DNA of 63,331 nucleotides from a virus (Duplodnaviria > Caudoviricetes): positions 1 through 63,331 of IMG/VR virus record IMGVR_UViG_3300021964_000059. One strand, given 5' to 3'. The position numbers were made by a program, and so were the translations under genes. Below the pieces are notes generated by a model that was given only the letters and a program-made list of their open reading frames with translations, was not told the origin of the DNA and searched no databases. Shown here one piece after another: positions 1 through 30,897 of the stretch. The first letter of the stretch is position 1. The number at the start of each line of letters is the position of its first letter.

Positions 1-1264
1 CAACAAGCACTTCACCAACAGAATCAATTTGACCTTGAGCATTAACAGTAAAGACTGGTATCTGAGTAGTTGAACCATAAGTTCCAGCGGATACACCTGT
101 GTTAGTAATACTTAAAGTATTTGTGGTAGAGTCATAGGATAATCCGGTACCATTTAATCCTGCTTCATCAAGTCCTACATTAAAGTCGGAATCAAAGTTG
201 ATTCGTTCATATGATTGAACATCAATACTAAATACACCAGTCGCAGAATCATAAGTTAAGTCGCCACCAGCACTAAAGTATCCACGTATTGATGTAATAG
301 AAGTCGCGTCACCAAGGGCCGAGTCAAATCTATTTCTTGTATAAAAAAGATTTGATCCTTCTACAAGATCAGTTGTTGATTTAGTTGCAAGTCTGATATC
401 AAAATCAGAGTCAGATCTAGCCGTTGTATAGTAAAGGTTAGTTCCTTCAGATACATCTGATGTAGATTTAGTTGCTAACCTTATATCAAAATCAGAATCA
501 GCGCGAGCTGTCGTATAATAAAGATTTGATCCTTCTGGCAATTGTCCAGTATTTGCATCCCCAAGGTCAGAATCAAAATTTGCTTTAGTATAAATCTGCT
601 CGACATCAATGGAAAATTCACCAGTAGATGAGTTATATGTCAAGTCACCACCGGCACTCAGTGCATTGCGAATCTCCGCAATACGGTCAGCTGAATCATG
701 GAACGTAGTATCAAAGGAGTTTCCATCCGCAGTATTAATTGTAAAGACACCAGTTGCGGAATCGTAACTAGTTGATAATATTCCTGCAACAGAAATAGTT
801 CCAATTGAATCAATCTGTCCTTGTGCATTAACAGTAATGACAGGAACTTCAGAAGCAGATCCGTATGTGGCAGCAACTACACCAGTTGCTGTAATAGAAA
901 GAGTATTTGTGGCTGAGTCGTAAGATAATCCAACACCATTTAATGCAGCCTCGTCAAGTGCTTGATTAAAATCAGAATCAAAATTTGCTTTTGTATAAAT
1001 TTCTTCAACATTAATTGAGAATTGACCAGTTGACGAATCGTATGTTAAGTCACCATCAGCACTAAAGTATCCACGTATCTGTTGAATTGCTCTCGAGAAC
1101 TTACGAGTACCGTCTGCATCAGATAGAATAAATGAATTATCGGAATTCGGTACACCAAAATTAGGTTCAGCCTGATCAATTGTTAAAAAATCATAGCGAT
1201 TTGAATCTAATTGATCAGCTGTTTTTGTTTTAGTTTTACCTGAAAGTAGTGTACCAAAAGCCAT
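1..1264 (-). CDS. Repetitive tail fibre-like virion protein (N-terminal part; runs off window start)
   Basis: Not in ORF track because truncated. ATG at 1262-1264 overlaps the upstream TAA (TAATG). Reads [26 protein letters not shown]... open to base 1, with [21 protein letters not shown] and YGS-x3-P-x2[10 protein letters not shown] repeats. Confidence 0.8.
20..1078 (-). repeat. Dispersed ~270-bp intragenic duplication (about 20-289 vs 806-1078)
   Basis: Exact cagcactaaagtatccacgtat at 268-289 and 1057-1078; both copies encode [16 protein letters not shown]...NFDSDFN-LDEA-LNG-GLSYDS-TNTLSIT...[10 protein letters not shown]. Confidence 0.8.
338..536 (-). repeat. Tandem 87-bp (29-aa) coding repeat, about 2.3 copies
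   Basis: gatttagttgc at 378 and 465; unit [29 protein letters not shown]. Confidence 0.85.
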
Positions 1265-1734
1265 TATTCTACTCCAGTGTGTTCACTAGCCAATTTTTCT
1301 TCTGCTGATACCCAGACATCAAATTTATTAGCTACTTGAGCTTTAATTTGTATTCTATCACCATTTTGTGCTGCAGCGGGCGATCTCTTTACAATACTTC
1401 TACCCTGAAGTGGAACAAATCCTGTATCCCCTGCAGGTACTTCAATTCTACCAAATTCGATCGAATCACCACCCTCTGTAACCAATACAGTATCTAACCA
1501 TAAATCAGAATCAGTTGATTTATTCTTACACGCCATTGGTGTTAAAAAGAAAATCTCACCTGGTCGAATTGCTCGTGTGTTATCTGCAGAATCTCTTTCC
1601 GTAAACTTATTTGACGTATCTGGAATTGAAAAATCAGGAGCTTCAATTAATGTAATAAAAGAATCACTTACATCACTCTGAGTAAGAATAAGTGATTTAC
1701 CAGTTGATGGAGTCCTACATGTAATTCTTGCCAT
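1264..1734 (-). CDS. Hypothetical virion-associated protein
   Basis: 156 aa ORF within tail operon, translationally coupled to downstream fibre gene. Confidence 0.65.
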
Positions 1735-1745
1735 TTTCTATTCTC

Positions 1746-3362
1746 CTAAAAATTCGTAGATAAAGCAGTACGAGTGGCAATTCTTCGTACTGCTGATTCA
1801 AACGGAGGGCCCGAAAGCTCACCTGTGTCAGCATCAATTTTCATACCACCAATAAATAATGCAGTACCTTCATCATCCTGACCCGATGCAATCACAACAC
1901 CACCATCAAGTTCTAAAATACTTTCTTCAATTGTCGTCTTATTTGCCGCCGGCGGTATTTGAGTTAATGCAACACCAGCCATTGTAGAATTAAATGTATG
2001 ACCAATTGCTGTAATTGTCGAAGGTTCTTTAATTAGTGTTGGACTATTTATTGTATTTTTTAGTGTAGTGAACATTTGATGAATATCAGAATCCGCTCCA
2101 GCACCGGTTTCAGTACCAAGAGCAGAATCTATGAAATCCCATGATGCAATATATGCATTTGTTTTGTCAGAGTCGATAATAGTAAGACCGACTCGATCAA
2201 AGAATCCCTCGATAGTATCAATCCATGGCTGCTCGTTCTGTGTTCTTAAAACCCAACTGATTGATTGCACCAATGTTCCTGTATCACGGCGAGTATACAA
2301 TTCATCAGCCTCAGTCCAACCTGTTGTATATCCTTCTGAGTCTAGGTAGTTCCACACATCATCTTTTAAGCCAGCCAGGAAATCTGAATCCATGATTGCA
2401 ACACCTGCAGTAGAATCCCTTGGTACTGTATAGCCTAATTTTTCTGGATCAACTCTATTTCTGGATCCATCAGCGACTAAGGTATAGTCACCAAATTGTG
2501 TTGAACAAGATGAAAGAATAATCTGGCCACCAGATAATGCAGTAAAATGTTTATGAGCCCAGATACTAATTGCGTTAACCGCGTTAATTAATGCGCCATT
2601 CTTTGCAACATACCCCATACCATTTTGAGTTGTTGGAGTTGCACCCCAAGTCATAAAGTTTGGATAGACTGAATACGGTGAAATAACTGCACCGTCTGCT
2701 AAACAAACACCACCACCCCTTGTGACAAACGGGTTAGCATTTTCTCTGTCTAATGGTGGAGCAACATAGAAAGGAAATGTAGATCTTACCGCGATTTTGT
2801 GGGCGTACGGCGTTCTCCTGATAACAGCGCCTGGTCTGAAAGCAACTGCAAATCCTTCGGTTGGGTTGTCAATATCATCGATTTGAAATCCTTCGAAGAC
2901 CGGACCTTGGAGGAAGCAACCCGATCCCATGCGAAAAACATTTCTTTGTTCATATCCTGCCTCTGGTTTAATAACACATGCTCGATAATCTGAATGAATA
3001 ATACAATCATCAGGCATATCAATATGCCCTTGAGTATAATAGGTACCTGGACCAATATGAATTACTGTTAACTCAGCTCTTGTTGTAGCTGCGGTCACAG
3101 CTGCTTCAATTGTTGCAAATGCCCTATCAAAGCTAGTACCATCATTACTATCACTGCCGGCTTTTTGAACATATAATGTATTTTCAACTGGTGCATGTGA
3201 AACAAATTTAAGAATTTCTTCTGCACCAGATTTATTTTGTTTTAAGAATATATTGCCATCATAGGTATTAACGGCCAATTCACCTAAAACAAGATCCCCT
3301 AGACCGGGTTCACTGCCGGTAGTATTTGAATTTTTCGAAATAATTGTTGAAATATCAACCAT
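1746..3362 (-). CDS. Tail fibre/spike protein with probable beta-helix domain
   Basis: N-terminal LGELAVNTYDGNIFLK fibre-attachment-like motif, then LYVQKAGSDSNDGTSFDRAFATIEAAV...IHIGPGTY typical of pectin-lyase-fold starts. Confidence 0.7.
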   Translation of the reverse strand: MVDISTIISKNSNTTGSEPGLGDLVLGELAVNTYDGNIFLKQNKSGAEEILKFVSHAPVENTLYVQKAGSDSNDGTSFDRAFATIEAAVTAATTRAELTVIHIGPGTYYTQGHIDMPDDCIIHSDYRACVIKPEAGYEQRNVFRMGSGCFLQGPVFEGFQIDDIDNPTEGFAVAFRPGAVIRRTPYAHKIAVRSTFPFYVAPPLDRENANPFVTRGGGVCLADGAVISPYSVYPNFMTWGATPTTQNGMGYVAKNGALINAVNAISIWAHKHFTALSGGQIILSSCSTQFGDYTLVADGSRNRVDPEKLGYTVPRDSTAGVAIMDSDFLAGLKDDVWNYLDSEGYTTGWTEADELYTRRDTGTLVQSISWVLRTQNEQPWIDTIEGFFDRVGLTIIDSDKTNAYIASWDFIDSALGTETGAGADSDIHQMFTTLKNTINSPTLIKEPSTITAIGHTFNSTMAGVALTQIPPAANKTTIEESILELDGGVVIASGQDDEGTALFIGGMKIDADTGELSGPPFESAVRRIATRTALSTNF

Positions 3363-3364
3363 GA

Positions 3365-5527
3365 CTAGAATGTCCCACCGTTAATTGTTGTTGGTCTACT
3401 AGATAATAGATAATAATCTAAGCCAGTTGCATGGAGTTGAACATAATCTGAATCAACTAATGCACTCACACCATTTGAATCCAGGCCAGAAATGCTTCCT
3501 GCAATCAGCGACACGTCGGCTGAATCAAGGACATTTGGTCTACCTGTTAAAATATTATAACTCAAACCGACTGCATGCAATTGCACGTAGGCTGAGTCAA
3601 CCTCATCCGCAATGATTGCAGCAACGTCAGCTGAATCAATAAGGTCTGTGTTTACAATAATACTTGATACGTTTGCCGAATCCAGTATATTCGGCGTACC
3701 TGTAAAGTTTGCGTAATCTAAATAGTATGTACCATTTTGATTATCAAGGGTATCAGCATCTATATTTAGATTATCAACAAACGTCTTATTAACAAGAGCA
3801 GTAACATCAGAATCGACTCGAGCTGTTGTATAGTAAAGATTAGATCCTTCGGTTAAATCAGAAGTGGATCTAGCGCTGAAATCTGAATCAAATCCTTGGT
3901 AATCACCTACTAGTGTATCACCTTGTAAGTTCGTCGCGTAGATATTACCAACATTAAGATCTGATAACGCAAAGCCAGTACCATTTCTGTCAATTACGTT
4001 AGTTGGTATAGCCGAATCAAGGGCTGAGTCAATTAGTCCAGCAAAGAGATAATACTGTGAGTTGGATGCATCGCGGAAGAAACCAGTGTGTCTCTTTGTA
4101 ACTCCACCATCGGGGGAGTAGTGAGCAACAAAACCAATATCAACCACATCAGAAAATTCGTTACTATCAGCAAGATGGAATAGTGGATCTGTTACTACAT
4201 ATGAAATGGTACTGACACTAGTTGTTCCACCATTAACACTCAAGTCACCATCAACCGTAAGGTTTGTGCCTATAAGGACTGATCCAGTTGTTGTGATTGA
4301 ATCGAATGTTACGCCCGCGTTTGTTGCAACAGATTGTCCGATTGCAATTTCACCGTCTGTGATCGTAACACCAGTTCCACCAGAGAAATGAGCTCTTACT
4401 TCAGTAGCGCTTGGTCCTGTGTAAGTAAATTTACCAGAAGCTGAATCGTAACGGAATGCACCATCACCACCTTGATCTTCTACGCTGTGGCTACTGCGCG
4501 CAAGTTCGATTATACCAGCAGAGTCAATTGCCTGGGCAACACCAACTGTTGAAATATCTGTTACAAGACCTGTAGAGTCAACAGTAACAACAGGAATTGC
4601 ACTTGTTGAACCAAATTGACCTGGAGTAACACCGCTGGCATCCAGAGCATAAGAAACCTCTACTCCGCTGACTGTTGCTGTCAATCCGACACCACTGAAA
4701 GTCATATCTGAGTTTGCAAGTGATATGGATCCTGTTCCCGTATCCCCAGTTGTGCTTAGTGTAATCCCTACACCACCAGTGATCCCGTCAACATAACCTT
4801 TTGTTGCAGCATCATCTGTGTCGGTTGGAGACGAGATGTTTACAATTCTTGAACTATTAACATCAACAGTTCCAGATCCGTTTGGATTAATACTAACATT
4901 ACCATCAGTGTTCGTTGATGCGATTTCATTTCCATCAATTGTAATATTGTCGACAAGTAACTCGTTTAGTTTCTTATTTGAATCAACAATTAGGGCACTT
5001 GATGCAGTAGTAATCCCGGGTGTATGATCTAAGAGAGAATCTCCACTACCACCAGATAATGTGGCAAAGGTAAAGTTTCCTAGTCCGTCTGTGGTTAGGA
5101 CTTGACCATCTGTACCGTCACTAATTCCTAAATCGGTTAAATCTGCAGGGGCATCTGTAATACCGTAGCCGCTTAGGGTTGTAGGTGTGTTTGAAAGACT
5201 GTCAAAATCACCATTGAACGCATCTGTAATTCCGTAGCCCGATAGAGTAGTCGGTGTACTTGTTAGATCTGCAAATGAAACACTGTCAAGAACTGCTGGT
5301 GTATTAGTAAAATTATTATAGTCTAAATAGTAGGTACCTTCAAAACCATCTAATGTGTCTGCATCATCAGCGGTCACGTTGGTAAATGTTAGATTCCCAT
5401 TACCATCAGTAGATAGAACTTGTCCACTTGTTCCATCAGTCGTCGGATATAATAACCCAACAATTGTAGCTGAATCAGTGACAACAAGTCCACCTTCAAT
5501 TTTAAAGGGTTTCCTTATTGCTGCCAC
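3365..5527 (-). CDS. Long tail fibre-like protein with internal repeats
   Basis: 720 aa G/S/T/D-rich; DGTSGQVLSTDGNG, TPTTLSGYGITDA x2, DAATKGYVD, VDSxYVQLHAxGL x2. Confidence 0.8.
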   Translation of the reverse strand: MAAIRKPFKIEGGLVVTDSATIVGLLYPTTDGTSGQVLSTDGNGNLTFTNVTADDADTLDGFEGTYYLDYNNFTNTPAVLDSVSFADLTSTPTTLSGYGITDAFNGDFDSLSNTPTTLSGYGITDAPADLTDLGISDGTDGQVLTTDGLGNFTFATLSGGSGDSLLDHTPGITTASSALIVDSNKKLNELLVDNITIDGNEIASTNTDGNVSINPNGSGTVDVNSSRIVNISSPTDTDDAATKGYVDGITGGVGITLSTTGDTGTGSISLANSDMTFSGVGLTATVSGVEVSYALDASGVTPGQFGSTSAIPVVTVDSTGLVTDISTVGVAQAIDSAGIIELARSSHSVEDQGGDGAFRYDSASGKFTYTGPSATEVRAHFSGGTGVTITDGEIAIGQSVATNAGVTFDSITTTGSVLIGTNLTVDGDLSVNGGTTSVSTISYVVTDPLFHLADSNEFSDVVDIGFVAHYSPDGGVTKRHTGFFRDASNSQYYLFAGLIDSALDSAIPTNVIDRNGTGFALSDLNVGNIYATNLQGDTLVGDYQGFDSDFSARSTSDLTEGSNLYYTTARVDSDVTALVNKTFVDNLNIDADTLDNQNGTYYLDYANFTGTPNILDSANVSSIIVNTDLIDSADVAAIIADEVDSAYVQLHAVGLSYNILTGRPNVLDSADVSLIAGSISGLDSNGVSALVDSDYVQLHATGLDYYLLSSRPTTINGGTF

Positions 5528-5571: not shown

Positions 5572-6525
5572 TTATATCCCGCTAATCAATCTTTTGGCTT
5601 TGACAGAAACATTGGATGCACTAGGTGTAAATAGTAACTTTACCTGATCATTATTAGAGTCTAAGATAGCATCAAAGGAACCCAAATCATCCCCTGTAAA
5701 CATTTTAGCAAATTCTTGCAAATACACATTTGAACTATCATGAATCAATAAAATTTCAGCTGCACCAAATTGATTAGTTGTATTCTGCTCCATTTGAATA
5801 AAATATTTGGCTGAACGCTGTGTAATAGTGGAGAACGTATCAAGAATCTCTTCTGTAATCCCACTAAAATCCTCGTCAACCACACTACTCAGGTTCTGAG
5901 CTGCATCAACGCCGGCCGACGAAATTGAACCAACCTCTTCTTCGACAATACCAAAACGATTGACCCGTTGAAAGGTCAATGTGCCATTAACATCCTTTAA
6001 TGCTATACTACCAATGTAAAGTGTATTTCCTGTCAGCCACAGATCTTTCCATCTGTTAAGTGGACTACCAAGAGATCTAACACTATCGACATCTGGAATC
6101 AGATCTACGTCTATAGAATCAAAATTTCGTCGAGCTTTGATATAATCGGAGTCAATAATATCACTAATTAAGTACTCAGCAGCTGTAATGACACGACCAA
6201 ACGAATCAATTTCAAATGCAGCTATTTCACTAGGACTACCATAACTACCAGCTGTCGCCAACTCTGGAAGATTAATCGAAAGTGTATTAGTAGCACTATC
6301 ATATGTTTCATTAATCTCACCACCGATTGCAAGTCGCGACGAAGTATACTTACCGGTGTTGGAATCATAGACAAAGATGTCAAGATGCTGTTTACCAGTA
6401 GTTTCCAAATCAGTAATCGAAGTAATGCTCTGCTGTGCCCCTGTCACGCTTCTAACAGGAGTACCAACTACAATCTTCTTGACAATAGTTCTAGATTTTA
6501 TGGTGGTTGATATTGTTTCTGACAT
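5572..6525 (-). CDS. Virion structural/fibre-associated protein
   Basis: 317 aa; LIPDVDSVRSLGSPLNRWKDLWL fibre motif and C-terminal RSAKYFIQ...EILLIHD domain recurrent in T4-like marine phage virion proteins. Confidence 0.65.
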   Translation of the reverse strand: MSETISTTIKSRTIVKKIVVGTPVRSVTGAQQSITSITDLETTGKQHLDIFVYDSNTGKYTSSRLAIGGEINETYDSATNTLSINLPELATAGSYGSPSEIAAFEIDSFGRVITAAEYLISDIIDSDYIKARRNFDSIDVDLIPDVDSVRSLGSPLNRWKDLWLTGNTLYIGSIALKDVNGTLTFQRVNRFGIVEEEVGSISSAGVDAAQNLSSVVDEDFSGITEEILDTFSTITQRSAKYFIQMEQNTTNQFGAAEILLIHDSSNVYLQEFAKMFTGDDLGSFDAILDSNNDQVKLLFTPSASNVSVKAKRLISGI

Positions 6526-6527
6526 CG

Positions 6528-6933: not shown

Positions 6934-6941
6934 TATTTATA
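6934..6941 (-). promoter_or_regulatory. T4-type late promoter TATAAATA
   Basis: Exact TATAAATA on minus strand upstream of the 6881 fibre operon. Confidence 0.75.
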
Positions 6942-6948
6942 ATAAATA
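6942..6948 (+). promoter_or_regulatory. Late promoter-like ATAAATA, divergent, upstream of inverted cassette
   Basis: aATAAATA back-to-back with the minus-strand TATAAATA, 30 nt before ATG 6979. Confidence 0.5.
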
Positions 6949-6978
6949 TGTTTGCAAGTTTCCGTAAAAGTAAACATA

Positions 6979-7512
6979 ATGTATAAAATAGTACAGTGGC
7001 GCCAAAATTTAAACTTGAGCACGTTTTATGAAAAGGCTTTAGCTAAACAATACATGAACAACATTAACCAAGAAGTGATGGTCAATCAATTGAAGAATGA
7101 AAATGTATGGAAAGGGTTTGTTCTATATCGTGATTTAGATCCAATTGGGTTTACATCTCTTCATAGCATTTTTGATATTGATCCTAAGGGGTACAGAATA
7201 TTGTGTAGAACTGCTTTGATTGAAAGTCCCGAACGAGTAATCAGTAGAGATTCGGTTAGAAAACATAAGCATCTCACATCCAGGTATCTTGCTCCTGCTT
7301 GTCTTAACTCAGTTGAAGGAAATTGTTACATTTCTACTAATAAAAGTAAAGTAGCCAGTCAACGGTTGGTTCATAATATCTTTATGCCTATATGGAAAGA
7401 GATGGGAATAGCAGAAGATGTATTTAAAACAAACTATCGCGGTCATGAACAAACATTTTGGTTGATAAACAAACAGGCGTTCTTAGAGAGTTTAGATGAA
7501 ACCAGTACATGA
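6979..7512 (+). CDS. Hypothetical protein (possibly GNAT-like fold)
   Basis: ORF track 6952-7512; ATG 6979 preferred. First gene of overlapping plus-strand operon; fold guess is weak. Confidence 0.55.
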   Translation: MYKIVQWRQNLNLSTFYEKALAKQYMNNINQEVMVNQLKNENVWKGFVLYRDLDPIGFTSLHSIFDIDPKGYRILCRTALIESPERVISRDSVRKHKHLTSRYLAPACLNSVEGNCYISTNKSKVASQRLVHNIFMPIWKEMGIAEDVFKTNYRGHEQTFWLINKQAFLESLDETST

Positions 7513-7972
7513 GATAAATTACCTGTTCAACAAACACTTGTTACTGACAGAGATAGAACATCTTAAAGGTCATAGTAAGGCCTATACGGACAATAGATAT
7601 TCTGCGGCCGCAGACAACTGGAGAATAATTAAAGAGACTAATCTGAAAGTAGGAGAAAAGGAAACACAGAGGTTCTTAGATTTCTATAACATTAGTAATA
7701 GCGGTTCCTGCAGATACTATATTCTTAAAAAAAATACAAGTTTGCAAATGCATGTGGATAACCATACAACGTGTTCAGTCAATGTAATTCTAAACAACAA
7801 TTGTGCTCCTGTCACAGTTGAGGACGTAGACTATTTTTACTCAACTGCAATTTTGAATACCCAAAAACGACATGGTGTGATCAATTCTGACACAGATAGG
7901 TTGTTATTTAAAATATCGTTCTTTGATTTGCCCTACGAGGAGTTAGTAAAAATTGTCTCTAGTGTACAGTGA
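7496..7972 (+). CDS. 2OG-Fe(II) oxygenase-like protein
   Basis: HxD (LQMHVD), distal His (KRHGVIN) and Arg (DRLLFKISF) of the double-stranded beta-helix fold. Confidence 0.7.
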   Translation: MKPVHEINYLFNKHLLLTEIEHLKGHSKAYTDNRYSAAADNWRIIKETNLKVGEKETQRFLDFYNISNSGSCRYYILKKNTSLQMHVDNHTTCSVNVILNNNCAPVTVEDVDYFYSTAILNTQKRHGVINSDTDRLLFKISFFDLPYEELVKIVSSVQ

Positions 7973-16233: not shown

Positions 16234-16244
16234 TTTTATCCTCG

Positions 16245-16727: not shown

Positions 16728-16947
16728 TGACTAATTGCACCAACAAATCTTTGATTTCCTTTATCTCACTTTTAAGATCCTCGACCTCATCAGCAAGTAC
16801 CAGCTGTTGTTCTTTTTGCTGCCTCATTAACTGTTTTCTCTTTCGGGCAGCTTCAATTTCAGCTTTATTTGTATTGATAACAACATTTGTTTCAACATCT
16901 CTTACATAACCCGAAAGATTTTCCACTTCCTTATACTGCAAGTGCAA
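16708..16947 (-). CDS. Small coiled-coil hypothetical protein
   Basis: RDVETNVVINTN...EVEDLKSEIKEIKDLL, of the type that follows the large structural gene in T4-like marine phages. Confidence 0.65.
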   Translation of the reverse strand: MHLQYKEVENLSGYVRDVETNVVINTNKAEIEAARKRKQLMRQQKEQQLVLADEVEDLKSEIKEIKDLLVQLVNGNNNS

Positions 16948-22184: not shown

Positions 22185-23543
22185 TTAAATTGTAATAACT
22201 ACTTTGATATCTTCTGTTTGAAGAGCATCGCGCACAATTCTTGCTCTATTTTCAATGTACAATACTTCACCTGAGTAAGGATCAAAAGAAGTAGACAGAC
22301 CTGCACTATCAATTGTACCTGATCCAGAACCATCACTTTCACCGAGGGTTTCACCATTCTGGAAGGACTTGAATCCTGTATTTTCATTCTGATGATAGTA
22401 AATGTAATCACTATCTATCTCATCAATAAATGCACCGGCTCCAGAAACAGCACCTCTGATAAATTTGTCGACCGTAAAAGAAGTCGCAGGAGTAGTCATT
22501 CTGTGGTATTTCAATCCTCGAGCTGTGAGAGATGTGAGCAATGTGTCACTATCAGGTAATGTAATATTACGCATTACTGTAATTTGTCTGAAATCATTAC
22601 CAAGAACAAATGCACCGGATTCGGAACCATCTGGCTTTGCATTTAGCATGATTGTGGATGCTTTAAGATCATCCCTAATATCAGCGCCAATACCATCCAA
22701 AGGACCAATAATTGGTCTTGCTGTTGCACCGGTTCCACCACCACCTGAAATAACAATATCGGCGTGGTCATAACCCGATCCAAGACCTGCGGACTCATTA
22801 TTCATTTCGATCTTAACAACAGCACCCCCGGAAACTGTTGCAGTCGCAGCAGCACTAGAACCATTTCCGTTGATTGTCACAGTAGGAGCTGAAGTGTAAC
22901 TAGAACCACCACTTGTTAATGTGACTCCAAGAATCTGGCCAGGTGTTGCTGCCTCTTTAACTAAAGCCTGGTCTCTTTCCAAACCTGTGTAAGCTCCGGA
23001 GGAATCATCTAAAAACTGAACAGGAAGGTAATTAGCTGATAAGAACGAGTTTGCTCTGGCAGCTGAAATCTGAAACAAGAATTTCCACCTGTATCCATCA
23101 GAAGTCTGGAATGCCTGTATTTGATTAACACCAGCTGTAGAATAATTTGGTAGAACTGTTGATGGAACAGCTTGTCCAAGAGCATTCTTTCCTTGCTGTA
23201 GACAAATGTATACATCGTTATTTTCAGTTAAAACATAGTATGGATTTGTGGGTATTCCCACAACATTATCATTGTATCCCGTATAGGTTGTACCTGATGT
23301 CCAATTGTATCTCGGGACAACAAAACTCGAACTGGCTACTTTTTTAACCGACTGAATATTATCCCTAACTTCCCTCTCTGACCGAATAGTTCTCAGAAGT
23401 GAAGTTGGGGTATCAGTCTCATTGTACTCATCAGACTTTCCAATACCAATGTAATATTCATTAGTATCAGAAGTACTTGAAATTTCAGTTAATAATAGAT
23501 TCGTTAAAATTCTCTTTAGTGAATCTGTTACAATTGCAGCCAT
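22185..23543 (-). CDS. gp8: Baseplate wedge subunit
   Basis: VVPRYNWTSG, YYVLT..VYICL, DGYRWKFLF, SGEVLYIENR...QTEDIKVVI. Confidence 0.85.
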   Translation of the reverse strand: MAAIVTDSLKRILTNLLLTEISSTSDTNEYYIGIGKSDEYNETDTPTSLLRTIRSEREVRDNIQSVKKVASSSFVVPRYNWTSGTTYTGYNDNVVGIPTNPYYVLTENNDVYICLQQGKNALGQAVPSTVLPNYSTAGVNQIQAFQTSDGYRWKFLFQISAARANSFLSANYLPVQFLDDSSGAYTGLERDQALVKEAATPGQILGVTLTSGGSSYTSAPTVTINGNGSSAAATATVSGGAVVKIEMNNESAGLGSGYDHADIVISGGGGTGATARPIIGPLDGIGADIRDDLKASTIMLNAKPDGSESGAFVLGNDFRQITVMRNITLPDSDTLLTSLTARGLKYHRMTTPATSFTVDKFIRGAVSGAGAFIDEIDSDYIYYHQNENTGFKSFQNGETLGESDGSGSGTIDSAGLSTSFDPYSGEVLYIENRARIVRDALQTEDIKVVITI

Positions 23544-23559: not shown

Positions 23560-24366
23560 TTATACGATGATCAATTCATCTCGGCCGACCAGATACCACT
23601 CTGATCCATCCCAAATACATTGAGCACCAGTACTTACCGGTAATGAGAATGAAGATCCTTGGGCAAAGGCCGACGGTGTTACTACCGCGGTGTTTCCACC
23701 TTTATTAGTGAAGAACTTGAGTTCCCCTACACTTGATCCTGAATCCAATGTTACCAACAATGCCCCTGGTTTATTACATATAACATAAGTAGCAGTTGCT
23801 GGTACAGTACCATCAGCATCCAACTCAATCGAACTAAATGAAATTAAACCAAGTTGAACCGATCCTGATCCCTTACCAACAAGACTCAAGTTTACGTTTG
23901 AGTCCTCACCGGATGCGCTGATAATAGGAGGATTTCCTGTCGCAGCATTTGTCACCGTGATCTCATTAACAGCAGAAGATGCAGCTGTAAATTTAACCAA
24001 CTCATTGGAATTGCTATCAAGAATCTCATTAGTGATTGTTGGTGAGGTGATAGTTGGTGTTGTTAATATTTTATTCGTAAGCGTCTGGTTAGCAGTATCT
24101 ACAACTGCAATACCACCAGAATCAGGTAAAGTGATAGTAATGTTTTCAGCAAGAACATCGGAGGCAATCAACGATGTTGTAAATACTGATCCTGAGAATG
24201 AAACACCACTATCTTGAAATGACACGACATTAGACAAGTTATCGCTGTCACCAAACTTCTGATAGATCTCTAGTAGAGTTTCATTGATCTTCTGGCCTGC
24301 CTGACGAAGAGTATCACCCGTTCCGTCATTTGCTGAAGATCCTAAACTGATATTTTGTCTAGCCAT
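23560..24366 (-). CDS. Baseplate/fibre connector with gp9/gp10-like N-terminus
   Basis: MARQNISLGSSANDGTGDTLRQAGQKINE is the T4 gp9/gp10-type N-terminal motif. Confidence 0.7.
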   Translation of the reverse strand: MARQNISLGSSANDGTGDTLRQAGQKINETLLEIYQKFGDSDNLSNVVSFQDSGVSFSGSVFTTSLIASDVLAENITITLPDSGGIAVVDTANQTLTNKILTTPTITSPTITNEILDSNSNELVKFTAASSAVNEITVTNAATGNPPIISASGEDSNVNLSLVGKGSGSVQLGLISFSSIELDADGTVPATATYVICNKPGALLVTLDSGSSVGELKFFTNKGGNTAVVTPSAFAQGSSFSLPVSTGAQCIWDGSEWYLVGRDELIIV

Positions 24367-24401: not shown

Positions 24402-25361
24402 TCAAATTGCCGAGTCACTTAGGTATCTTGTGAACATTGTATTGTCCATTGTCTCGGTATTCAATGACATATCCGGTCTGATTGTAACATCACTATCATC
24501 AAACTTGAAGCTGTTTGGTGACAACAACTCGCTAATATCTTGATAGAAACTATCAAGTTGCGTAGAAGAGATGTCTTCGTACGTGCTGATGATTTGTGAT
24601 AGATCAATTCGCATATCATCTCCCTGCGAGTCGTACAATCCTGTAAGTTGTGTAAATCCAGTAATAGGTGTAGCCGATGGGGCAATATCTGCTGTAAGAA
24701 CTCTTAGGTTCTCAGCAGAATCCAATGGTTCTTCTGAATTTGGCATACTATCAAATCCAATATCAACAATCCCTTCAAGCTGGGCTTGGCCTGCAAAAAA
24801 GAATCCAGCTGGGTGTGCAAACCGCTTGTACAATTCTTCATAATCGGAAACAGAAATACCTGACTTAATCAAAATGGAAAATGTTTGGTACAAAGTATCA
24901 CTAATAATAAACTTTAACGATTCAGCCCCAATTTCCGATTCACTGACAATAAAAATTTGATCCTTTGGATATTCTACTACTACTTCACTATTGAAAAATG
25001 CTCTGAAAAAACCTTCAACTGATACTACAGAACCTTTTGATCTATAAAAACTTGATAGTAGTTTGGTCATCAACCTAGGTTCATCGAAGAAAGAGGCGAC
25101 CTGCAATCCGTTACCAATTTCACTGATCAGGGCATCGAGATACTGTTCTTCTGTAACACTAATATCACGGATAGAAAACAGATTGTTGATTTCTGTGCCA
25201 AAGGATCCTGTAGTACTACTGTCCAGGTAATTGTAATATTTTTCTAAAAACGTGACAAGTGTGGGATACTCACTAAGATAAAACTCAGGAAGAACTTCTC
25301 TAACCTTTCTGTTAGCAAAGTTAATATCTCTTCTGTTGTTGTCATCCAGAATATGTGTCAT
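24402..25361 (-). CDS. Baseplate wedge protein (gp7-like)
   Basis: LPEF...YPTLVTFLEKYY, FYRSKGS...FFRAFF, HPAGF; immediately after gp6. Confidence 0.7.
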   Translation of the reverse strand: MTHILDDNNRRDINFANRKVREVLPEFYLSEYPTLVTFLEKYYNYLDSSTTGSFGTEINNLFSIRDISVTEEQYLDALISEIGNGLQVASFFDEPRLMTKLLSSFYRSKGSVVSVEGFFRAFFNSEVVVEYPKDQIFIVSESEIGAESLKFIISDTLYQTFSILIKSGISVSDYEELYKRFAHPAGFFFAGQAQLEGIVDIGFDSMPNSEEPLDSAENLRVLTADIAPSATPITGFTQLTGLYDSQGDDMRIDLSQIISTYEDISSTQLDSFYQDISELLSPNSFKFDDSDVTIRPDMSLNTETMDNTMFTRYLSDSAI

Positions 25362-27187
25362 GTTGTTAACGATACCGCTGTATTCTGATAATCAATTACG
25401 GACTGAGCAAACGACAGGGCTGGATCAAGTGCCAGAATGTAGTTTCTTAATGGTTTAATAGTACTCTGGTTTGCTGGTGTCACCGACACCTTGATTGCCG
25501 TCCCTTCATATGCAGTAGGAAGGAACCCAGCAAGACTAACTGTTCCATTTGTAGCATTAAAAGAACCAACATTATCAAGTTGTACTACCCCGGACAGATT
25601 GACAATCTGTAGTTTTGTCGAACTAAGTTGATTTCTAATAAAACATGATTGATCGTTGTATGTAAATCTGGAGGATGTTACAATGTAGTTGACATCATCC
25701 GCAGCTGCAATTGCGGTTGGGTACGAAAGAGTATAATCACTCACTGTCGTCAACGATGGTGTAATTCTTTGTTGCAACTTAATATTCATCCTTGAGTTTA
25801 GAATAGCAGGTGCTAGTCCGTCAATCTCTGCGAGAAGATTAGATCTTCTAAATGTTTTACCAAACGAATTCAGATTTGCTGTAAAGTAAGATTCCACAGT
25901 GTCCTGCACATCATTCTCAACCGCCTTTGGCGATAAGCCAGTTTGATCCGGATCGAGGTTGAATATTGTTTCAATTTCTATAAATGTATTAGTCGGATCT
26001 GTATACACAGTATCAATCGACATAATGGCCAAGTTATCAGAAAGATTGGTTACAATTTGATCCTTGATGGTTTGTTGTACACTGGCAGAGATATTATCCT
26101 TGAATTTTAATGAAACATACACTCGGCCATACACAGGTGGAACATTATCATTTCCACCCCAAGCAATTACATCTTCCAAATACGAAGAGTAATTCTCGAG
26201 AATCAAAGCTTTATAATCTTCAGCCGTAACCATTCTTTGCTGAGATGCAAAGGATAAAGGAGCATTTCCTTTGATGGAGGCGATTGACTCTTTGGCATCT
26301 CCACCTGACGATTCAGAAACAACCGTCGTTGTCAGAGTATAATCTGTCCCACTAATTGTTACCGACTCATCAGCTAAGAATGTATCAGCTCCATTGCCAG
26401 CCGCACCTGCTGTAGAAAGATAAGTAATTACAATTTTGTTTCCTGCTACTGGTGCCTTTCCGAGAACATTGCCGTTGGAGAATGTTACCTCATAGTATCC
26501 ATTTGGAGCCTCTCTGATAATATAAATTATAGAATCATTGTCAATTCTCACAGCACGATTTACATCAATATAAGTTTCAAATGAAGAAGAGGTGGCAGTG
26601 TCGTATACATTAACGACCATCGTTGAGGTGTCAATTGTTTCATCGGGAATTACATATACTTGATCATCAGTAGTGTCCCCTACTAAAAACGTTTTTGTTT
26701 TCAGCGTACCCTCTGTTATTTCAATACTCGTTGAACCACCTGTTGTTTCGAATGTAAATAACCCACTTCCGTTATTGTATCCAATATATTCCTCTAATGT
26801 CTGAAAGCTGTATGATACATTATCAATCTCAGTAGTAAAGGTTGTGTTAGCCGGTAGCGAAATGAAGGTTGGGGATGAAAGGGCTGTTGAAACACTCAAG
26901 TTGACAGTTGCGGAGGACCCTGTTCTAGATCTAGAATAATAACCAAGAGTCTCAGCGTGAGAAAGAACAGAAGATCTCAACTGGGCAGTTGATAAGAAGG
27001 ATTCATTGATAGCAAGGTTAGCAATCAATCCATTAAGATGAGTGTTGTATGCCAGAACATCCAAAATGTTTGAAAGACCAGAGGCCTCAAAATCATAGTC
27101 AGCGAATTCATCTTGCTGCTGCAAAAATGTTTTTAGATTTTCTTTGATTACATCAAAATCAAGATCGCTCGATCTGATAACCGCCAT
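25358..27187 (-). CDS. gp6: Baseplate wedge subunit
   Basis: LDFDVIKENLKTFL..DYDFEASGLS.ILDVLAYNTH, QQRMVTAEDY, PPVYGRVYVS. Confidence 0.9.
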   Translation of the reverse strand: MAVIRSSDLDFDVIKENLKTFLQQQDEFADYDFEASGLSNILDVLAYNTHLNGLIANLAINESFLSTAQLRSSVLSHAETLGYYSRSRTGSSATVNLSVSTALSSPTFISLPANTTFTTEIDNVSYSFQTLEEYIGYNNGSGLFTFETTGGSTSIEITEGTLKTKTFLVGDTTDDQVYVIPDETIDTSTMVVNVYDTATSSSFETYIDVNRAVRIDNDSIIYIIREAPNGYYEVTFSNGNVLGKAPVAGNKIVITYLSTAGAAGNGADTFLADESVTISGTDYTLTTTVVSESSGGDAKESIASIKGNAPLSFASQQRMVTAEDYKALILENYSSYLEDVIAWGGNDNVPPVYGRVYVSLKFKDNISASVQQTIKDQIVTNLSDNLAIMSIDTVYTDPTNTFIEIETIFNLDPDQTGLSPKAVENDVQDTVESYFTANLNSFGKTFRRSNLLAEIDGLAPAILNSRMNIKLQQRITPSLTTVSDYTLSYPTAIAAADDVNYIVTSSRFTYNDQSCFIRNQLSSTKLQIVNLSGVVQLDNVGSFNATNGTVSLAGFLPTAYEGTAIKVSVTPANQSTIKPLRNYILALDPALSFAQSVIDYQNTAVSLTT

Positions 27188-27627
27188 TATCTCACCCTCG
27201 TTAGTGATACATCTACTTGCACTTGTTCTTCAGTTGAAACCACTTGACAGGTAACTGTTACTCCAATAGAATTGTAATCTGGAGATGGTTCAACATTGAC
27301 TAACTTAACTCTTGCTCTTGGTTCATAGTTATTAATAACATTAGAGACTCTCTCTTGTATATCCAATTCATCAAACTCTTGATCAAGAGAAAATAAAAAA
27401 TCATTCAATCCTCCCCCATAATTAGGATCAAATGGTTTTTCGAATCTGTTAGTAAGAAGAAGATTCTTAATCGCCTGCCTTACAGCAGCACCTTCTGTTT
27501 TCTTATAGATGTCACCTGATGGCCGATTCTGAAAAGTCAGATCGATATCTTTATACGAAACAGACCTACTACTAATGAGAGGAACATTCGATAAGTTTCC
27601 ATCTTCTATTGAAAATCTTCTTGCCAT
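27187..27627 (-). CDS. gp25: Baseplate wedge subunit
   Basis: YKDIDL, AVRQAIKNLLLTN..EKPFDP.YG, NYEPR. Confidence 0.9.
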   Translation of the reverse strand: MARRFSIEDGNLSNVPLISSRSVSYKDIDLTFQNRPSGDIYKKTEGAAVRQAIKNLLLTNRFEKPFDPNYGGGLNDFLFSLDQEFDELDIQERVSNVINNYEPRARVKLVNVEPSPDYNSIGVTVTCQVVSTEEQVQVDVSLTRVR

Positions 27628-27646
27628 TTTAGAATCTCTTTTCTTT

Positions 27647-27654
27647 TATTTATA
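27647..27654 (-). promoter_or_regulatory. T4-type late promoter TATAAATA
   Basis: Exact motif upstream of gp25. Confidence 0.75.
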
Positions 27655-27661
27655 TTACAAA

Positions 27662-30283
27662 TTAAGCTGAATCAGGTACAACATAAATAAATGCTGTTCC
27701 TGAATTCACAGGTGCACCGTCCTTCGGGGCCCCGATAATAGCTCTATTGCCACTTATAGCAACTGAATGACCAAATTGATCACCAGCAGCTGGCTGTGGA
27801 TTAGAAATATTTATCGACTGTGACCAGATGCTATCAGATCTTGTAAAGATGTAAGCTGATCCAGCATCAGTCGCACTTGAATCTTCTAGGGGAGCCCCAA
27901 CAATAATCGTATCGCCTTCTAGGTCAATACTGTAGCCTACATATCCATTAGAAGATGCTGGAGACCGAGTTAATTTCGCCTGTTGGGACCACGTAGAATC
28001 TGATCTCGTAAATACATAAATTGCGCCTTCATTACTACCAGATGAATCATCTAAGGTAGCAGTAATAGCTATTGTATTACTGTTACTATCTACAGCAACA
28101 CTATAGCCAAACCTATCATTAACGCCAATATCACCAAGTGGGGCAGTTAGTTTCGCAGTCTGAGACCAACTATCGTTGTTCCTTGTAAATACGTAGGCGG
28201 CCCCAGCACTAAACACACCATTTGTCTGCTTTGAATGAGCACCTACAACAATAGTGTCCCCCGATATGTCAACAGAATTATTCTCTTGGCCAAGCAGATC
28301 TTGCCCCGATGCATCGGAAGCAACTAATTTTTGTTGTTCTGTCCAATTACTTTGTGATCCTGTAAATACATATACGGCTCCTTCGTTACCAGAACCGAGA
28401 TCATGAAATGGTGCACTCGCGACGATTGTATTCCCATCAATTGCAACAGCGCGACCGAATTGATCAGTCTGTGCAACATCTGATGCAGTGAAGGATGTAC
28501 GGTAATTCCAACTATCATACAATCTCGTATATACATTAACTTCTCCTGCTGTTAATATCGAAGGAGCTCCCCCTGTGCCGACCTTTGTTGCTAAGGGTGC
28601 ACTAGCAACAATGGTATCCCCATCTATATCGACTGACCAACCAAAATTGGTATTCGAAGCAGGGTTTTTACCCTTTTGAAGAATTTGTTGTGTTGACCAA
28701 GTACTTGAAGGTCCCACCGAGTCTTTAACAAAGTCGTAAAAATTTGATAATTGAATTGTACCAGATGTGGGTGGGGGGGATCCTTGATCTGCTGCCCCTG
28801 GAAATGTGAGTACATAAACAGCTCCGTAATTAGCTCCGATGGGCCCCGTCGGCTCATCGAGCCGGGATCCGATAATCGCTGTATTACCTGACATACCCAC
28901 ACTATAACCAAAATCTTCGGCCGAGTCCAAAATTGTAGGCCTAAAACTATCCTCTAATTCAACATTAGACCAATCTACTATTTGTGGACTACTAACAACG
29001 CTATCACTATAATATTCCGACAACGATATTGGATTAGTTCCTCCCTGGTAATCTTGCACTTCTGATAAACTGATTGAGGGAAATGACCAACCAAATCCCC
29101 AATTCAATGGCCCAAGATAAATTGTACCTGTTGGTCCTTCTATCGAATCTAGTGACCGTACTAAACTACCATCATAATTATAAAAGTTAACACCTTCATT
29201 GTTATTGACAACAGCAAATTGATTTTTGATTGGGGCAATAGCATTTCCAAATTTAACAACATGTATTCCAACACCATGATTGTATTCTGTAGCTGAATCC
29301 CCCTCTATTATTATTTCATTGGAACCATCAGAGTCGTAAATGTATATTCCACCAAAATCAGAATCATAACCTCTATAAGGTGATCCCACTATTAACTTAC
29401 CTACGTCATCCTGATAGTGTACGCTGATACCAAAGTAATTCCAATTACTATCATCACTTGGATTAATAGTATTCAAATGGGTCCCAGAGTCAGCAGTGTA
29501 GACATAAACACTTCCGGAAGTGAGTTCACTGAAAGACTTGACACCTCCAACATACACCTTATTATTGGAACTTATGGCAATCATCCTCGATAAACCATCT
29601 CCTGTTCCACTCTGTACTACGCCACCAAATCCAATTCCAGATCCAGCTGCAGCTGGTATAGAACATGTTCTAGTGTTAGTGAATCCAGAATCAAACAATC
29701 TAACTCTTCCTTGCCCCTCGACTGTATCAGTTTCCTGTGCAGCAATTATGCCGTGAGATATTTCAACATTTCTTCCGAGGAAGGTTCCAGGAACAAGGCC
29801 TCTATAAGTATAATCGTAGGAGGAATCAGCACTTGGATTAGATACAATACCTTCAATACTATACTGATAAAGTCTTCCATAATCATTAATGCTGCTGCCG
29901 GTTGCACTTACTATTAAGGTATCGCCCTCAATCGAAATAGCGCTCCCAAAGCCATCACCATTAGCATCGGCGACTTCTGTGATATGGGCGATGGGTTGTT
30001 GTCTCCGAGCTATGTACTCGAAAGTGGTTGCATCAAATACATGTATGAGTCCAGAGTTATTATAAACATCATTCCACAGCGGTTCAGATATAACAATATA
30101 TTCGTCATTGAAATCAATAGAACTTCCAAAATTAGCACCTGAACCATATACAGGAGAAATCAGCTGTCTAATTTGCTCACCTGTTTCATAATTTATAACA
30201 CTAACTATTCCTGCCCCATTGTTTCCATCAACAGCATCTTTTGGGTTATTCCCTATGAGGAAACGATATTTGGGTAAAGCCAT
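27662..30283 (-). CDS. FG-GAP/integrin-like beta-propeller repeat protein (putative adhesin)
   Basis: Many FG.SV.I.GDTIVVGAP...GA.YVF blades in two blocks. Confidence 0.8.
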   Translation of the reverse strand: MALPKYRFLIGNNPKDAVDGNNGAGIVSVINYETGEQIRQLISPVYGSGANFGSSIDFNDEYIVISEPLWNDVYNNSGLIHVFDATTFEYIARRQQPIAHITEVADANGDGFGSAISIEGDTLIVSATGSSINDYGRLYQYSIEGIVSNPSADSSYDYTYRGLVPGTFLGRNVEISHGIIAAQETDTVEGQGRVRLFDSGFTNTRTCSIPAAAGSGIGFGGVVQSGTGDGLSRMIAISSNNKVYVGGVKSFSELTSGSVYVYTADSGTHLNTINPSDDSNWNYFGISVHYQDDVGKLIVGSPYRGYDSDFGGIYIYDSDGSNEIIIEGDSATEYNHGVGIHVVKFGNAIAPIKNQFAVVNNNEGVNFYNYDGSLVRSLDSIEGPTGTIYLGPLNWGFGWSFPSISLSEVQDYQGGTNPISLSEYYSDSVVSSPQIVDWSNVELEDSFRPTILDSAEDFGYSVGMSGNTAIIGSRLDEPTGPIGANYGAVYVLTFPGAADQGSPPPTSGTIQLSNFYDFVKDSVGPSSTWSTQQILQKGKNPASNTNFGWSVDIDGDTIVASAPLATKVGTGGAPSILTAGEVNVYTRLYDSWNYRTSFTASDVAQTDQFGRAVAIDGNTIVASAPFHDLGSGNEGAVYVFTGSQSNWTEQQKLVASDASGQDLLGQENNSVDISGDTIVVGAHSKQTNGVFSAGAAYVFTRNNDSWSQTAKLTAPLGDIGVNDRFGYSVAVDSNSNTIAITATLDDSSGSNEGAIYVFTRSDSTWSQQAKLTRSPASSNGYVGYSIDLEGDTIIVGAPLEDSSATDAGSAYIFTRSDSIWSQSINISNPQPAAGDQFGHSVAISGNRAIIGAPKDGAPVNSGTAFIYVVPDSA

Positions 30284-30897
30284 TAGGGAGCTCCAAATGC
30301 CGTAACGTCGTCTGCAGAAACAATTTCACCCGTAGAACTAATCGAAGCTTTAACAACATCGTTGTAAGAGAATGAAAGCTTGTCACTAACAACGGATATT
30401 TTCCAATTTCCAATAGTTAATGCAGTCGCATCCCCAAAAGCATTACTAATTCTATCATCTGCAATTAGAACAACTTGAGCAGAGTCTGTTCCAACTACAC
30501 CTAGGGATGTAACATAATCGGCATCGATTAGGGATAATACATTAGACGAATCTAAAATATTAGGGGTGTTTAATAAGGAACTGTATCTAAAATCCTGTCT
30601 CGCCGCCACATAATCAGAGTCGATAACAACTTCTCCAACAGATAAATCAACAGCAACATACTTCGTACCATCAAATGACAAAACTTGGCCTGCGGTTGCA
30701 CTATCAACTGAGCTATCGACGTTTGCCAGCTGGCCAATATTTGCTCCAGCGACTCCATCAGAAAAGAATAAATTCCCACTGGCGTCGATAGTAATGACCT
30801 GATTATTTGTACCAGCTTCGGTCGGAAGGGTGTACAACGTATTCCCGTTGTCATCAATATAAATTACTGTACTTCCCGACTGTCTTAAATCTGCCAT
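30283..30897 (-). CDS. Short fibre-like virion protein
   Basis: GTNNQVITIDASGNL, AGQVLSFDG, IDSDYVAAR; C-terminal GEIVSADDVTAFG. Confidence 0.6.
   Translation of the reverse strand: MADLRQSGSTVIYIDDNGNTLYTLPTEAGTNNQVITIDASGNLFFSDGVAGANIGQLANVDSSVDSATAGQVLSFDGTKYVAVDLSVGEVVIDSDYVAARQDFRYSSLLNTPNILDSSNVLSLIDADYVTSLGVVGTDSAQVVLIADDRISNAFGDATALTIGNWKISVVSDKLSFSYNDVVKASISSTGEIVSADDVTAFGAP

Follow-up and report, generated by a model that had tools for sequence, protein, structure and literature searches.

Asp-Ser enrichment in outer tail and fibre proteins across an uncultured clade of marine T4-like phages

We analysed a stretch of viral DNA (IMG/VR record IMGVR_UViG_3300021964_000059; 63,331 nucleotides, the whole contig record, hereafter the window) whose minus strand encodes a T4-like baseplate and fibre module. 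The outer tail and fibre proteins of the uncultured marine T4-like clade to which it belongs were confirmed to contain the dipeptide aspartate-serine (Asp-Ser, DS) about twice as often as expected by chance. This signature is real, strong and conserved, and it is apparently new; a literature search for a DS bias in phage fibres found nothing. The bias is confined to distal virion proteins and is spread over the clade. Its most probable meaning, with nearly an even chance, would be a structural capping or turn motif for which the clade has its own preference for serine.

Asp-Ser excess in the outer virion proteins

DS was counted in 68 of the 83 open reading frames (ORFs) of at least 100 aa, after 15 overlapping shadow ORFs had been dropped, and each count was compared with 2000 composition-preserving shuffles of the same protein. 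In 17 virion ORFs (7520 aa), to which the pooled values and sequence contexts below refer, DS occurs 124 times vs 62.9 expected (z 8.7) and ranks first of the 400 dipeptides. The initial annotation had proposed this enrichment from counts made by hand, every one of which was reproduced exactly, and the excess over shuffled expectation bears it out. Nine of the eleven proteins that it had listed as DS-rich lie individually above their shuffles, while the 1747-aa and 204-aa proteins are not significant on their own. The ORFs are as follows (DS observed vs expected).

2-1264, minus strand: fibre protein fragment of 421 aa that runs off the window; 15 vs 5.2 (z 4.8, p 0.0005), in YDSxTG, FDSDF and TTARxDSDFDIR repeats
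1264-1734, minus strand: 156-aa ORF of the fibre block; 4 vs 1.2; no match in Pfam
1746-3362, minus strand: 538-aa ORF of the fibre block; 7 vs 2.7 (p 0.013); no match in Pfam, weak tblastn match to P-SSM2
3365-5527, minus strand: 720-aa tail fibre; 20 vs 8.6 (z 4.5), with eight SD; PNxLDSxxV and xxDS(A/D)YVQ repeats in the C-terminal shaft
5572-6525, minus strand: 317-aa fibre-module protein; 8 vs 3.0 (p 0.002)
15745-16727, minus strand: two paralogous fibre-module proteins of 162 and 160 aa, 39% identical, with five DS each (15745-16233, 5 vs 2.2, p 0.045; 16245-16727, 5 vs 1.6, p 0.009)
16931-22174, minus strand: DUF4815 outer baseplate protein, 1747 aa; 14 vs 10.5 (p 0.16, not significant); 1.38 times expectation in 43 relatives
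22185-23543, minus strand: gp8-like wedge protein; 5 vs 3.1; three to four conserved DS columns
23560-24366, minus strand: gp9/10-like protein, 268 aa; 6 vs 2.0 (p 0.01)
24402-25361, minus strand: wedge protein (PF23786) in the gp7-like position; 7 vs 3.3 (p 0.03); four columns with DS in 35-40 of 47 relatives
25358-27627, minus strand: gp6 and gp25 of the inner wedge; DS-poor, 1 vs 4.5 and 0 vs 1.0
27662-30283, minus strand: FG-GAP_2 propeller protein, 873 aa; 20 vs 7.9 (z 4.7); four DS in hairpins where the family has Gly-Ser
30283-30897, minus strand: 204-aa fibre-module protein; 5 vs 2.9 (p 0.14, not significant alone)

The proteins that had been named as DS-poor are indeed so: besides gp6, the 311-aa ORF (0 vs 2.2), gp32 (0 vs 1.5) and the ORF at 37352-39169 (0 vs 2.4). 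The reverse dipeptide SD is weakly raised (79 vs 63.2), and ND, NS and DN are not raised. DT is below expectation (48 vs 59.3, z -1.7), as are ES and NS. The serine codons within DS are AGY in 28% of cases vs 30% overall, and GANTC sites, which GAY-TCN always creates, are not avoided (observed at or above Markov expectation). Since the codon mix within DS equals the overall mix and GANTC is not avoided, the signal lies at the level of the peptide, as had been suggested, and a nucleotide-level cause was ruled out.

The module was assigned by a Pfam scan that covered 60 of the 68 ORFs, the other eight being small. Matches were obtained for the gp5 OB domain, gp25, gp6, the wedge protein, gp8 and the gp9/10 N-domain; the DUF4815 and FG-GAP_2 proteins, gp53, a tail-tube cap and gp32 are further members. 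The T4-like baseplate gene order is present (gp5, gp25, gp6, wedge, gp8, gp9/10, gp53, gp48-like). Several of the baseplate matches score low or miss the curated threshold (gp8, 23.3 vs 25 bits; T4_tail_cap, 17.7 vs 20.2).

DS is mostly flanked by a hydrophobic residue on its N-terminal side and by A, D, N or S on its C-terminal side. The form hydrophobic-DS-[ADNS] occurs 50 times vs 5.9 (z 17.9), the form non-hydrophobic-DS-[ADNS] 35 times vs 12.5, and DS with neither flank 18 times vs 25.2. The unit that is actually enriched is hydrophobic-D-S-(A/D/N/S); its threonine counterpart, hydrophobic-DT-[ADNS], was found once vs 5.4. Among 123 sites, the residue after serine is most often alanine (29) and in 28 cases aspartate (DSD). 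Together, N, E, Q, P and D follow in 45 of the 123 against a background of 0.24, and L, I, V, T, A and S in 63, which equals the background of 0.50. Each DS stands singly, in varied surroundings. No long uninterrupted Ser-Asp tract is present, and the context table of these ORFs showed no metal-binding consensus near DS.

An all-against-all BLAST revealed fibre modules common to seven proteins (the first ORF, the 720-aa fibre and the 317-, 162-, 160-, 268- and 204-aa proteins). These modules carry the stereotyped units YDSxTG, FDSDF, ARxDSDF, PNxLDSxxV and xxDS(A/D)YVQ, and they hold 62 of the 124 DS vs 25.9 expected. The fragment at 2-1264 also has modules in common with cyanophage structural proteins. 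A search for solved structures over the DS repeats returned none, the sole matches being to a generic fibre N-terminal motif and a coiled-coil motif.

Conservation in the clade and serine-alanine alternation in outgroups

The nearest named phage is Phage C48C1 (gp6 47% identical), followed by pelagiphage HTVC008M, the Melnitz phages and cyanomyoviruses (31-34%); the hosts of the nearest named phages are SAR11, Methylophilales and cyanobacteria. A literature search on C48C1 for host clues gave nothing relevant, and megablast of the baseplate against phages gave no close record. A gp6 query of IMG/VR returned 63 related loci of 44-93% identity. The 141-kb relative contig G001 (84% complete) is collinear with the window and 93% identical to it.

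Counts in relatives covered ORFs that are 120 aa or longer, contain no X and could be assigned by blastp at E <= 1e-5. The outer orthologues are about twofold DS-enriched: gp8-like, 292 vs 130.8 (n=44); gp9/10-like, 148 vs 62.5 (n=49); gp7-like, 340 vs 146.5 (n=58). The inner-wedge orthologues are DS-poor (gp6, 144 vs 264; gp25, 14 vs 39.7). This outer-rich and inner-poor pattern is seen in almost every one of the 63 loci, down to 44% gp6 identity. For the analysis of alignment columns, rows with at least 70% coverage of the reference and less than 1.3 times its length were kept and duplicates removed, which gave 47, 40 and 28 rows. Several columns have DS in 25-40 of 40-47 sequences, and in the gp7-like family this rises to 35-40 of 47. 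Over the three families of the outer wedge, about one third of the DS falls in low-frequency (<20%) columns and about two thirds outside them. Both residues are better conserved inside DS than elsewhere (D, 0.53-0.58 vs 0.40-0.51; S, 0.38-0.58 vs 0.26-0.36; L005 left out of this test). Both the gp7-like protein and the propeller have a conserved DSA(I) at the C-terminus. G001 encodes additional DS-biased fibres, and its 1406-aa fibre has 40 DS vs 10.5, nearly all in xxDS(A/D)YVQ or PNVLDSxNV units.

The protein at 27662-30283 is an FG-GAP_2 (PF14312) propeller, matched with an E-value of 2.8e-94 in eight stretches. DS does stand in its FG-GAP turns, as first noticed: the family hairpin consensus FxRSGxxW reads RSDSTW, RSDSIW, NNDSW and LYDSW in the window, and the change of the family RSGSTW to RSDSTW is found in the window only. 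Among 86 FG-GAP_2 homologues, a DS z above 2.5 was obtained for the window protein (P0001), a clade orthologue (P0004) and one other (P0034); for the G001 orthologue (P0003) it is 2.1. A single protein query of IMG/VR returned no close relatives of the propeller. In the region 27662-30897 of the window (G001 64787-68733), the propeller is only 45% identical to its counterpart and the fibre-module gene beside it has a partial G001 match (68% over 82 aa), whereas the flanking baseplate genes are 93-95% identical. The region forms a hypervariable cassette and probably determines host range.

The DS bias was not seen in T4 (62 vs 59.3 over 50 kb), HTVC008M (169 vs 195.9 genome-wide), S-SSM5 or P-SSM2. 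It was also not found in roseophage CRP-207 and Polaribacter phage P12002L, despite the common fibre modules (P12002L fibre, 5 vs 7.3). As the initial annotation would predict, the relatives that lack the sugar locus described below (HTVC008M, S-SSM5, T4) also lack the bias. In T4, gp27 (L069 47228-48403) is the sole outlier of 40 ORFs, with 6 vs 1.9 (z 3.3). The only DS-rich protein of C48C1 is gp10-like (L001 22801-27507; 1568 aa). All its DS come from a repeat of about 88 aa, present some eight times to judge by the DS spacing, and each copy has four DS, in the contexts EIRTDSEVNA, NALIDSKITE, DLVTDSDITS and AQLIDSADAT.

In the outer proteins of HTVC008M (L068, 33.4-55 kb), a phage that we take to share the marine habitat of the clade, the related form hydrophobic-DA-[ADNS] occurs 18 times vs 3.9 (z 6.9). 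The density of the serine and alanine forms together is about 3.7 per 1000 aa in HTVC008M vs about 3.9-4.3 in clade relatives. Because HTVC008M writes the motif with alanine at a similar combined density, the hydroxyl is dispensable for the motif and its folding. The Ser:Ala ratio at the motif is 7:18 in HTVC008M, 18:15 in C48C1, 1:5 in P-SSM2 and 5:9 in S-SSM5; outside the G001 fibres it is 26:18, which is near parity. Where the window reads ARADSDFD, the homologous module positions of S-SSM5 read ARSDARFD and ARADARAD; where it reads LTYDSATG, CRP-207 has LSYNSGTG. By the densities and ratios above, the motif class predates the clade. The fibre genes of HTVC008M are adjoined by a block of four 2-oxoglutarate-Fe(II) (2OG-Fe(II)) oxygenase genes.

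Structural and enzymatic explanations of the motif

The explanation that we rate as most likely, with confidence just short of an even balance, is structural. The motif would either cap the N-terminus of a helix, together with a hydrophobic staple, or form the strand-to-turn junction in the shaft repeats and surface hairpins. The aspartate would do the capping, and the residue after it would need only to be small. Duplication and shuffling of shaft repeats (xxDS(A/D)YVQ, PNVLDSxNV, YDSxTG, FDSDF) among at least seven fibre and baseplate-periphery genes may have multiplied the motif, with serine fixed at the second position in the clade of the window and alanine in HTVC008M; no enzyme would read it. 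The residue preferences of helix N-caps, hydrophobic staples and type I turns are general protein-structure background. The motif resembles them in the order hydrophobic-Asp-small/polar, in the hydrophobic residue four positions after the aspartate in xxDS(A/D)YVQ, and in the propeller, where DS takes the place of the hairpin Gly-Ser. The excess of hydrophobic-DS-[ADNS] follows this pattern, and alanine is tolerated at the second position, both in the DA form of HTVC008M and at the homologous S-SSM5 positions. P-SSM2, which has a glycosyltransferase (GT) cluster with GT25 yet no DS bias, was counted on the same side. In favour, too, are the half of the DS that lies in mutually similar modules, the repeat-borne DS of the 1406-aa G001 fibre and of the C48C1 protein, and the conserved DS columns. 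A capping role had been named in advance as an outcome that would speak against modification of the DS serine; many DS do fit the cap or turn pattern, and HTVC008M uses alanine. This structural explanation accounts for the fibre-module half of the DS and for the HTVC008M result.

Several observations weigh against it. Residues outside the modules still hold 62 DS vs 36.4, 20 of them in the propeller, whose internal repeats were left unmasked as BLAST showed no off-diagonal self hits. In the seven outer proteins with no detectable shared fibre module, DS-[ADNS] occurs 37 times vs 9.1 (hydrophobic-preceded, 14 vs 2.9; non-hydrophobic-preceded, 23 vs 6.2). The initial claim that DS sits in unrelated folds needs a correction for the seven DS-rich proteins that share fibre modules. 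At the conserved DS columns of the clade, the gp7-like and gp8-like orthologues of the outgroups have other dipeptides, and the FG-GAP_2 family at large shows no DS excess (527 vs 565.9, rows 6-86). Because of these outgroup columns and of a propeller family without the excess, a generic structural need fails to explain how the clade differs. The Ser:Ala ratio at the motif stays at 117:11, 184:14 and 75:8 in three bins of clade divergence; serine is thus held specifically in the outer proteins over deep divergence, which simple founder effects predict poorly. N-cap and turn motifs are generic, and they do not explain why serine is used only in the clade, why SD is weakly enriched and why NS and ES are not, although these are about as good as helix caps. 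Since unrelated outer proteins and deep branches all keep serine, there is room for an enzyme or other partner that reads it.

A possible but doubtful alternative is that D-S-(A/D/N/S) would be the acceptor of a phage-directed serine modification, most plausibly cytoplasmic O-glycosylation initiated by a pair of GT25 transferases and extended by variable genes. The initial annotation had envisaged a glycan coat made by roughly a dozen glycosyltransferases or by AspH-like hydroxylases encoded in the window. A sugar and glycosyltransferase locus is present at 45.7-56.4 kb and consists of two parts.

45689-48248, minus strand: clade-conserved block of four genes, assigned by Pfam and synteny (206-aa unknown, 235-aa unknown, GT25, GT25)
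48245-56420, minus strand: variable part with two methyltransferases, GT8 and GT8-like ORFs, a NAD epimerase/dehydratase, a DUF6492/GT-A-like ORF and a HAD-nucleotidyltransferase fusion

The figure of a dozen is too high: Pfam GT families are matched by five ORFs, of which three pass the curated cut-off (GT25 at 43.3 and 60.8 bits, cut-off 24; GT8 at 46.3 bits, cut-off 24.3; two sub-threshold GT8 matches), and about three further leads were found. The only AspH-like match is sub-threshold (18.7 vs 22.6 bits) and lies in an island that is absent from the 93%-identical G001. The GT8 gene at 50637-51383 is a paralogue of 52051-52824, because both match the same gene of G001 and of C48C1; G001, though collinear, lacks it and has a gap that corresponds to window 50654-51345. 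A single late-promoter-like TATAAATA at 56956-56963 (minus strand) precedes a 112-aa ORF, the first of the series of genes leading into the locus, with no clear terminator after it. This motif is present in the window at chance frequency (7 vs 5.1), as were the results of a promoter and terminator scan, so that its position is at most a hint of expression with the late genes.

The block of two unknown genes and the GT25 pair is syntenic, at 94-99% identity in G001 and 48-60% in G004 and G005, and it is present on all four clade contigs that reach the region (the window and these three). When five other clade contigs were searched, no match was obtained in G002, G003 and G006, probably because, to judge by their coordinates, they stop short of the region. 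GT25 was not found in HTVC008M, S-SSM5, T4 or C48C1. In G004 (L124 14500-19762) the GT25 pair is followed by two FkbM-type methyltransferases, a UDP-glucose/GDP-mannose dehydrogenase-like ORF and two weak GT9-like ORFs. As the sugar genes after the pair differ, the locus has a conserved head and a variable tail. The co-occurrence of the GT25 block and the DS bias across the clade is suggestive; it represents one phylogenetic event, and GT25, found in 4 of 50,697 phage records, is too rare for independent contrasts.

Serine modification would agree with a bias that is clade-specific, limited to the outer virion, directional (DS and not SD) and specific to serine. It would also agree with DS in proteins that have no detectable common module, with lineage-specific gains at exposed hairpins, with serine kept over alanine through gp6 identities of 44-93%, and with a syntenic sugar locus that has conserved and variable parts. 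Enrichment of the motif in target proteins is a known mark of general sequon systems (PMC12871550), and the soluble glycosyltransferase SdgB reads a minimal DSD (PMC8561734); 28 of the 123 DS are followed by aspartate. The fullest form of the proposal, which we consider doubtful to a slightly greater degree, is a new phage-encoded cytoplasmic serine O-glycosylation system with D-S-(A/D/N/S), mostly preceded by a hydrophobic residue, as the sequon. In it, the GT25 pair and its two unknown neighbours might initiate, the GT8, GT9-like and DUF6492 transferases, methyltransferases and sugar-nucleotide enzymes might finish, and a variable coat would be laid on fibres, outer wedge and propeller, an Asp-Ala cap having been turned into an Asp-Ser acceptor.

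Several points stand against modification. The co-occurrence of GT25 and DS is a single evolutionary event in one clade. P-SSM2 has GT25 and many other transferases and its outer proteins show no DS bias, which contradicts a general rule that a GT cluster implies the bias. GT8, GT9-like and GT25 are classic families of the lipo-oligosaccharide core. In the cyanophage literature such clusters are read as serving host-surface or DNA modification (PMC12801897). The Pfam scan of 60 of the 68 ORFs found no GT-B/DUF1975 or other known protein-initiating transferase. Some two thirds of the DS lies outside the low-frequency columns of the three outer-wedge families, which is unlike a drifting glycan shield. 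Where serine is replaced at DS columns (53 cases), threonine takes its place in 20 and alanine in 16, and the ratio is the same as at ordinary serine columns (0.26 vs 0.20), which makes the comparison uninformative. In the 54 other ORFs of the window no dipeptide is more depleted than DS (27 vs 51.8, z -3.7). We dropped this avoidance as evidence for a sequon as it is not robust: complete T4-like marine phages have a genome-wide baseline of about 0.87 (C48C1, 209 vs 242.9; HTVC008M, 169 vs 195.9; P-SSM2, 310 vs 351.9), and in the genes of G001 outside the window (102-141 kb) DS is 47 vs 45.6. From the glycan coat of the initial annotation, the peptide-level bias, its place in the distal virion and the presence of a sugar locus remain; the Bacteroidota sequon, the dozen transferases and the AspH-like enzymes do not, and P-SSM2 counts against it.

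It is quite unlikely that the motif is read by something other than an enzyme, such as a divalent cation held by the aspartate carboxylate and the serine hydroxyl, a chaperone or assembly partner of the fibres that is specific to the clade, or a ligand on the host surface. The clade- and compartment-specific pattern argues for a cause acting in trans, and the DSA(I) conserved at the C-termini of the propeller and the gp7-like protein would suit such a partner. However, no metal-binding consensus lies by DS, HTVC008M uses alanine, and no candidate partner gene was identified.

The proposal that DS is the O-glycosylation sequon D-(S/T)-(hydrophobic) of the general system of a flavobacterial (Bacteroidota) host is very improbable. 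It has in its favour the aspartate before serine, alanine as the commonest next residue (29 of 123) and one homologous Polaribacter phage fibre module that also has DS. That fibre, however, is not DS-rich (5 vs 7.3), and the initial analogy fails in both tested features, the use of threonine and the residue after serine. DT is not enriched (48 vs 59.3), and L, I, V, T, A and S follow serine no more often than the background. Assembly of T4-like virions is cytoplasmic. According to the review, the Bacteroidota system acts on non-cytoplasmic proteins in the periplasm, and N, E, Q, P and D, which follow 45 of the 123 DS, account for <1% of its sites each (PMC12871550). Chance, composition or a nucleotide artefact is hardly credible at all: single outliers do occur in controls, as with T4 gp27 among 40 ORFs, but the pooled z of 8.7 rises to 17.9 for the extended motif and the pattern is repeated in 63 loci, with serine codons in DS as overall, GANTC not avoided, ND, NS and DN not raised and SD only weakly so.

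The fibre block is interrupted by a window-specific island on the opposite strand. It comprises 11 ORFs, most of them without a family, including a weak methyltransferase.

6952-14367, plus strand: island within the fibre block
7953-8579, plus strand: weak AspH-like cupin
9510-10112, plus strand: QueC-like PP-loop ATPase
10779-11822, plus strand: radical SAM/SPASM enzyme
11807-12385, plus strand: PHROG glycosyltransferase, with a weak C48C1 match

None of the island ORFs matches G001, and the radical SAM gene was not found in five records searched. The radical SAM and AspH-like genes were rejected as the cause of the DS bias, which G001 shows with no island ORF. The island looks like a putative peptide- or nucleotide-modifying cassette. 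Back-to-back late-promoter-like motifs at 6934-6948, TATAAATA (minus strand) and ATAAATA (plus strand), separate the fibre operon from the island and suggest divergent late transcription. Elsewhere in the window, ARAGORN found a cluster of five tRNAs at 42034-43006 (minus strand; Trp-CCA, Pro-TGG, Cys-GCA, Asn-GTT, Arg-TCT). A SegE-like GIY-YIG homing endonuclease at 61332-61856 is flanked by ribonucleotide reductase genes, and in the last ORF (62836-63330) the end of the ribonucleotide reductase large-subunit barrel domain is fused to a glutaredoxin domain.

Significance and comparison with known systems

If the motif is structural, it marks a large uncultured marine T4-like clade and the repeat grammar of its fibres, and it shows how sister lineages can fix different residues at one position of a capping motif. 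A modified serine would make this the first phage system of protein glycosylation that is defined by a sequon, with modification sites predictable from the sequence, and it would bear on host range, receptor masking and virion persistence in seawater. It would also be the first evidence on the targets of the large glycosyltransferase islands of marine T4-like phages, which, in the cyanophage literature, may be the host surface or DNA (PMC12801897).

The Bacteroidota O-glycosylation system resembles the window in the aspartate before a hydroxyl residue, in a motif over-represented in presumed targets, and in a locus with conserved and variable parts (PMC12871550). Its sequon is D-(S/T)-(L/I/V/T/A/S), with L, I, V, T, A or S in the last position at about 90% of sites, and its own feature is a lipid-linked glycan transferred in the periplasm (PMC12871550). 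In contrast to it, the window leaves threonine unused and favours aspartate or asparagine after serine, in virion parts that are assembled in the cytoplasm and not exported. In the O-GlcNAcylation of staphylococcal Ser-Asp repeats by SdgB and SdgA, a soluble enzyme reads DSD on surface adhesin-like proteins, and DSD makes up 28 of the 123 window sites (PMC8561734, PMC3794999). Unlike the SdgB targets, the DS of the window are isolated in folded repeats; the transferases are of the GT-A type (GT8, GT25, DUF6492-like), and no GT-B/DUF1975 was found in the 60 of 68 ORFs.

The fibres of marine phages S-SSM5, Syn9, P-TIM40, HTVC008M, CRP-207 and P12002L share NLYYT-AR-xD(S/A), YDSxTG-like and DAATKGYVD modules with the window. 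They are not DS-enriched, and HTVC008M has the motif class with alanine. In mycobacteriophage, phage-encoded glycosyltransferases have reportedly been proposed or shown to decorate virion proteins (work said to be that of Freeman et al. in 2023), and the sites are said to lie in C-terminal stretches of the capsid and tail-tube proteins, with no dipeptide sequon. The window encodes glycosyltransferases and sugar-nucleotide enzymes, as a phage-encoded virion glycosylation system would require. A further likeness in gene content is to the "cell wall synthesis and modification" clusters of cyanomyoviruses S-SCSM2R, S-SCSM1 and P-SSM2, which also hold many glycosyltransferases, including GT25, and NDP-sugar epimerases, and which their authors read as host-surface or DNA modification (PMC12801897). 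Unlike P-SSM2, which has such a cluster and no DS bias, the window has a four-gene GT25 block that is conserved across the DS-biased clade.

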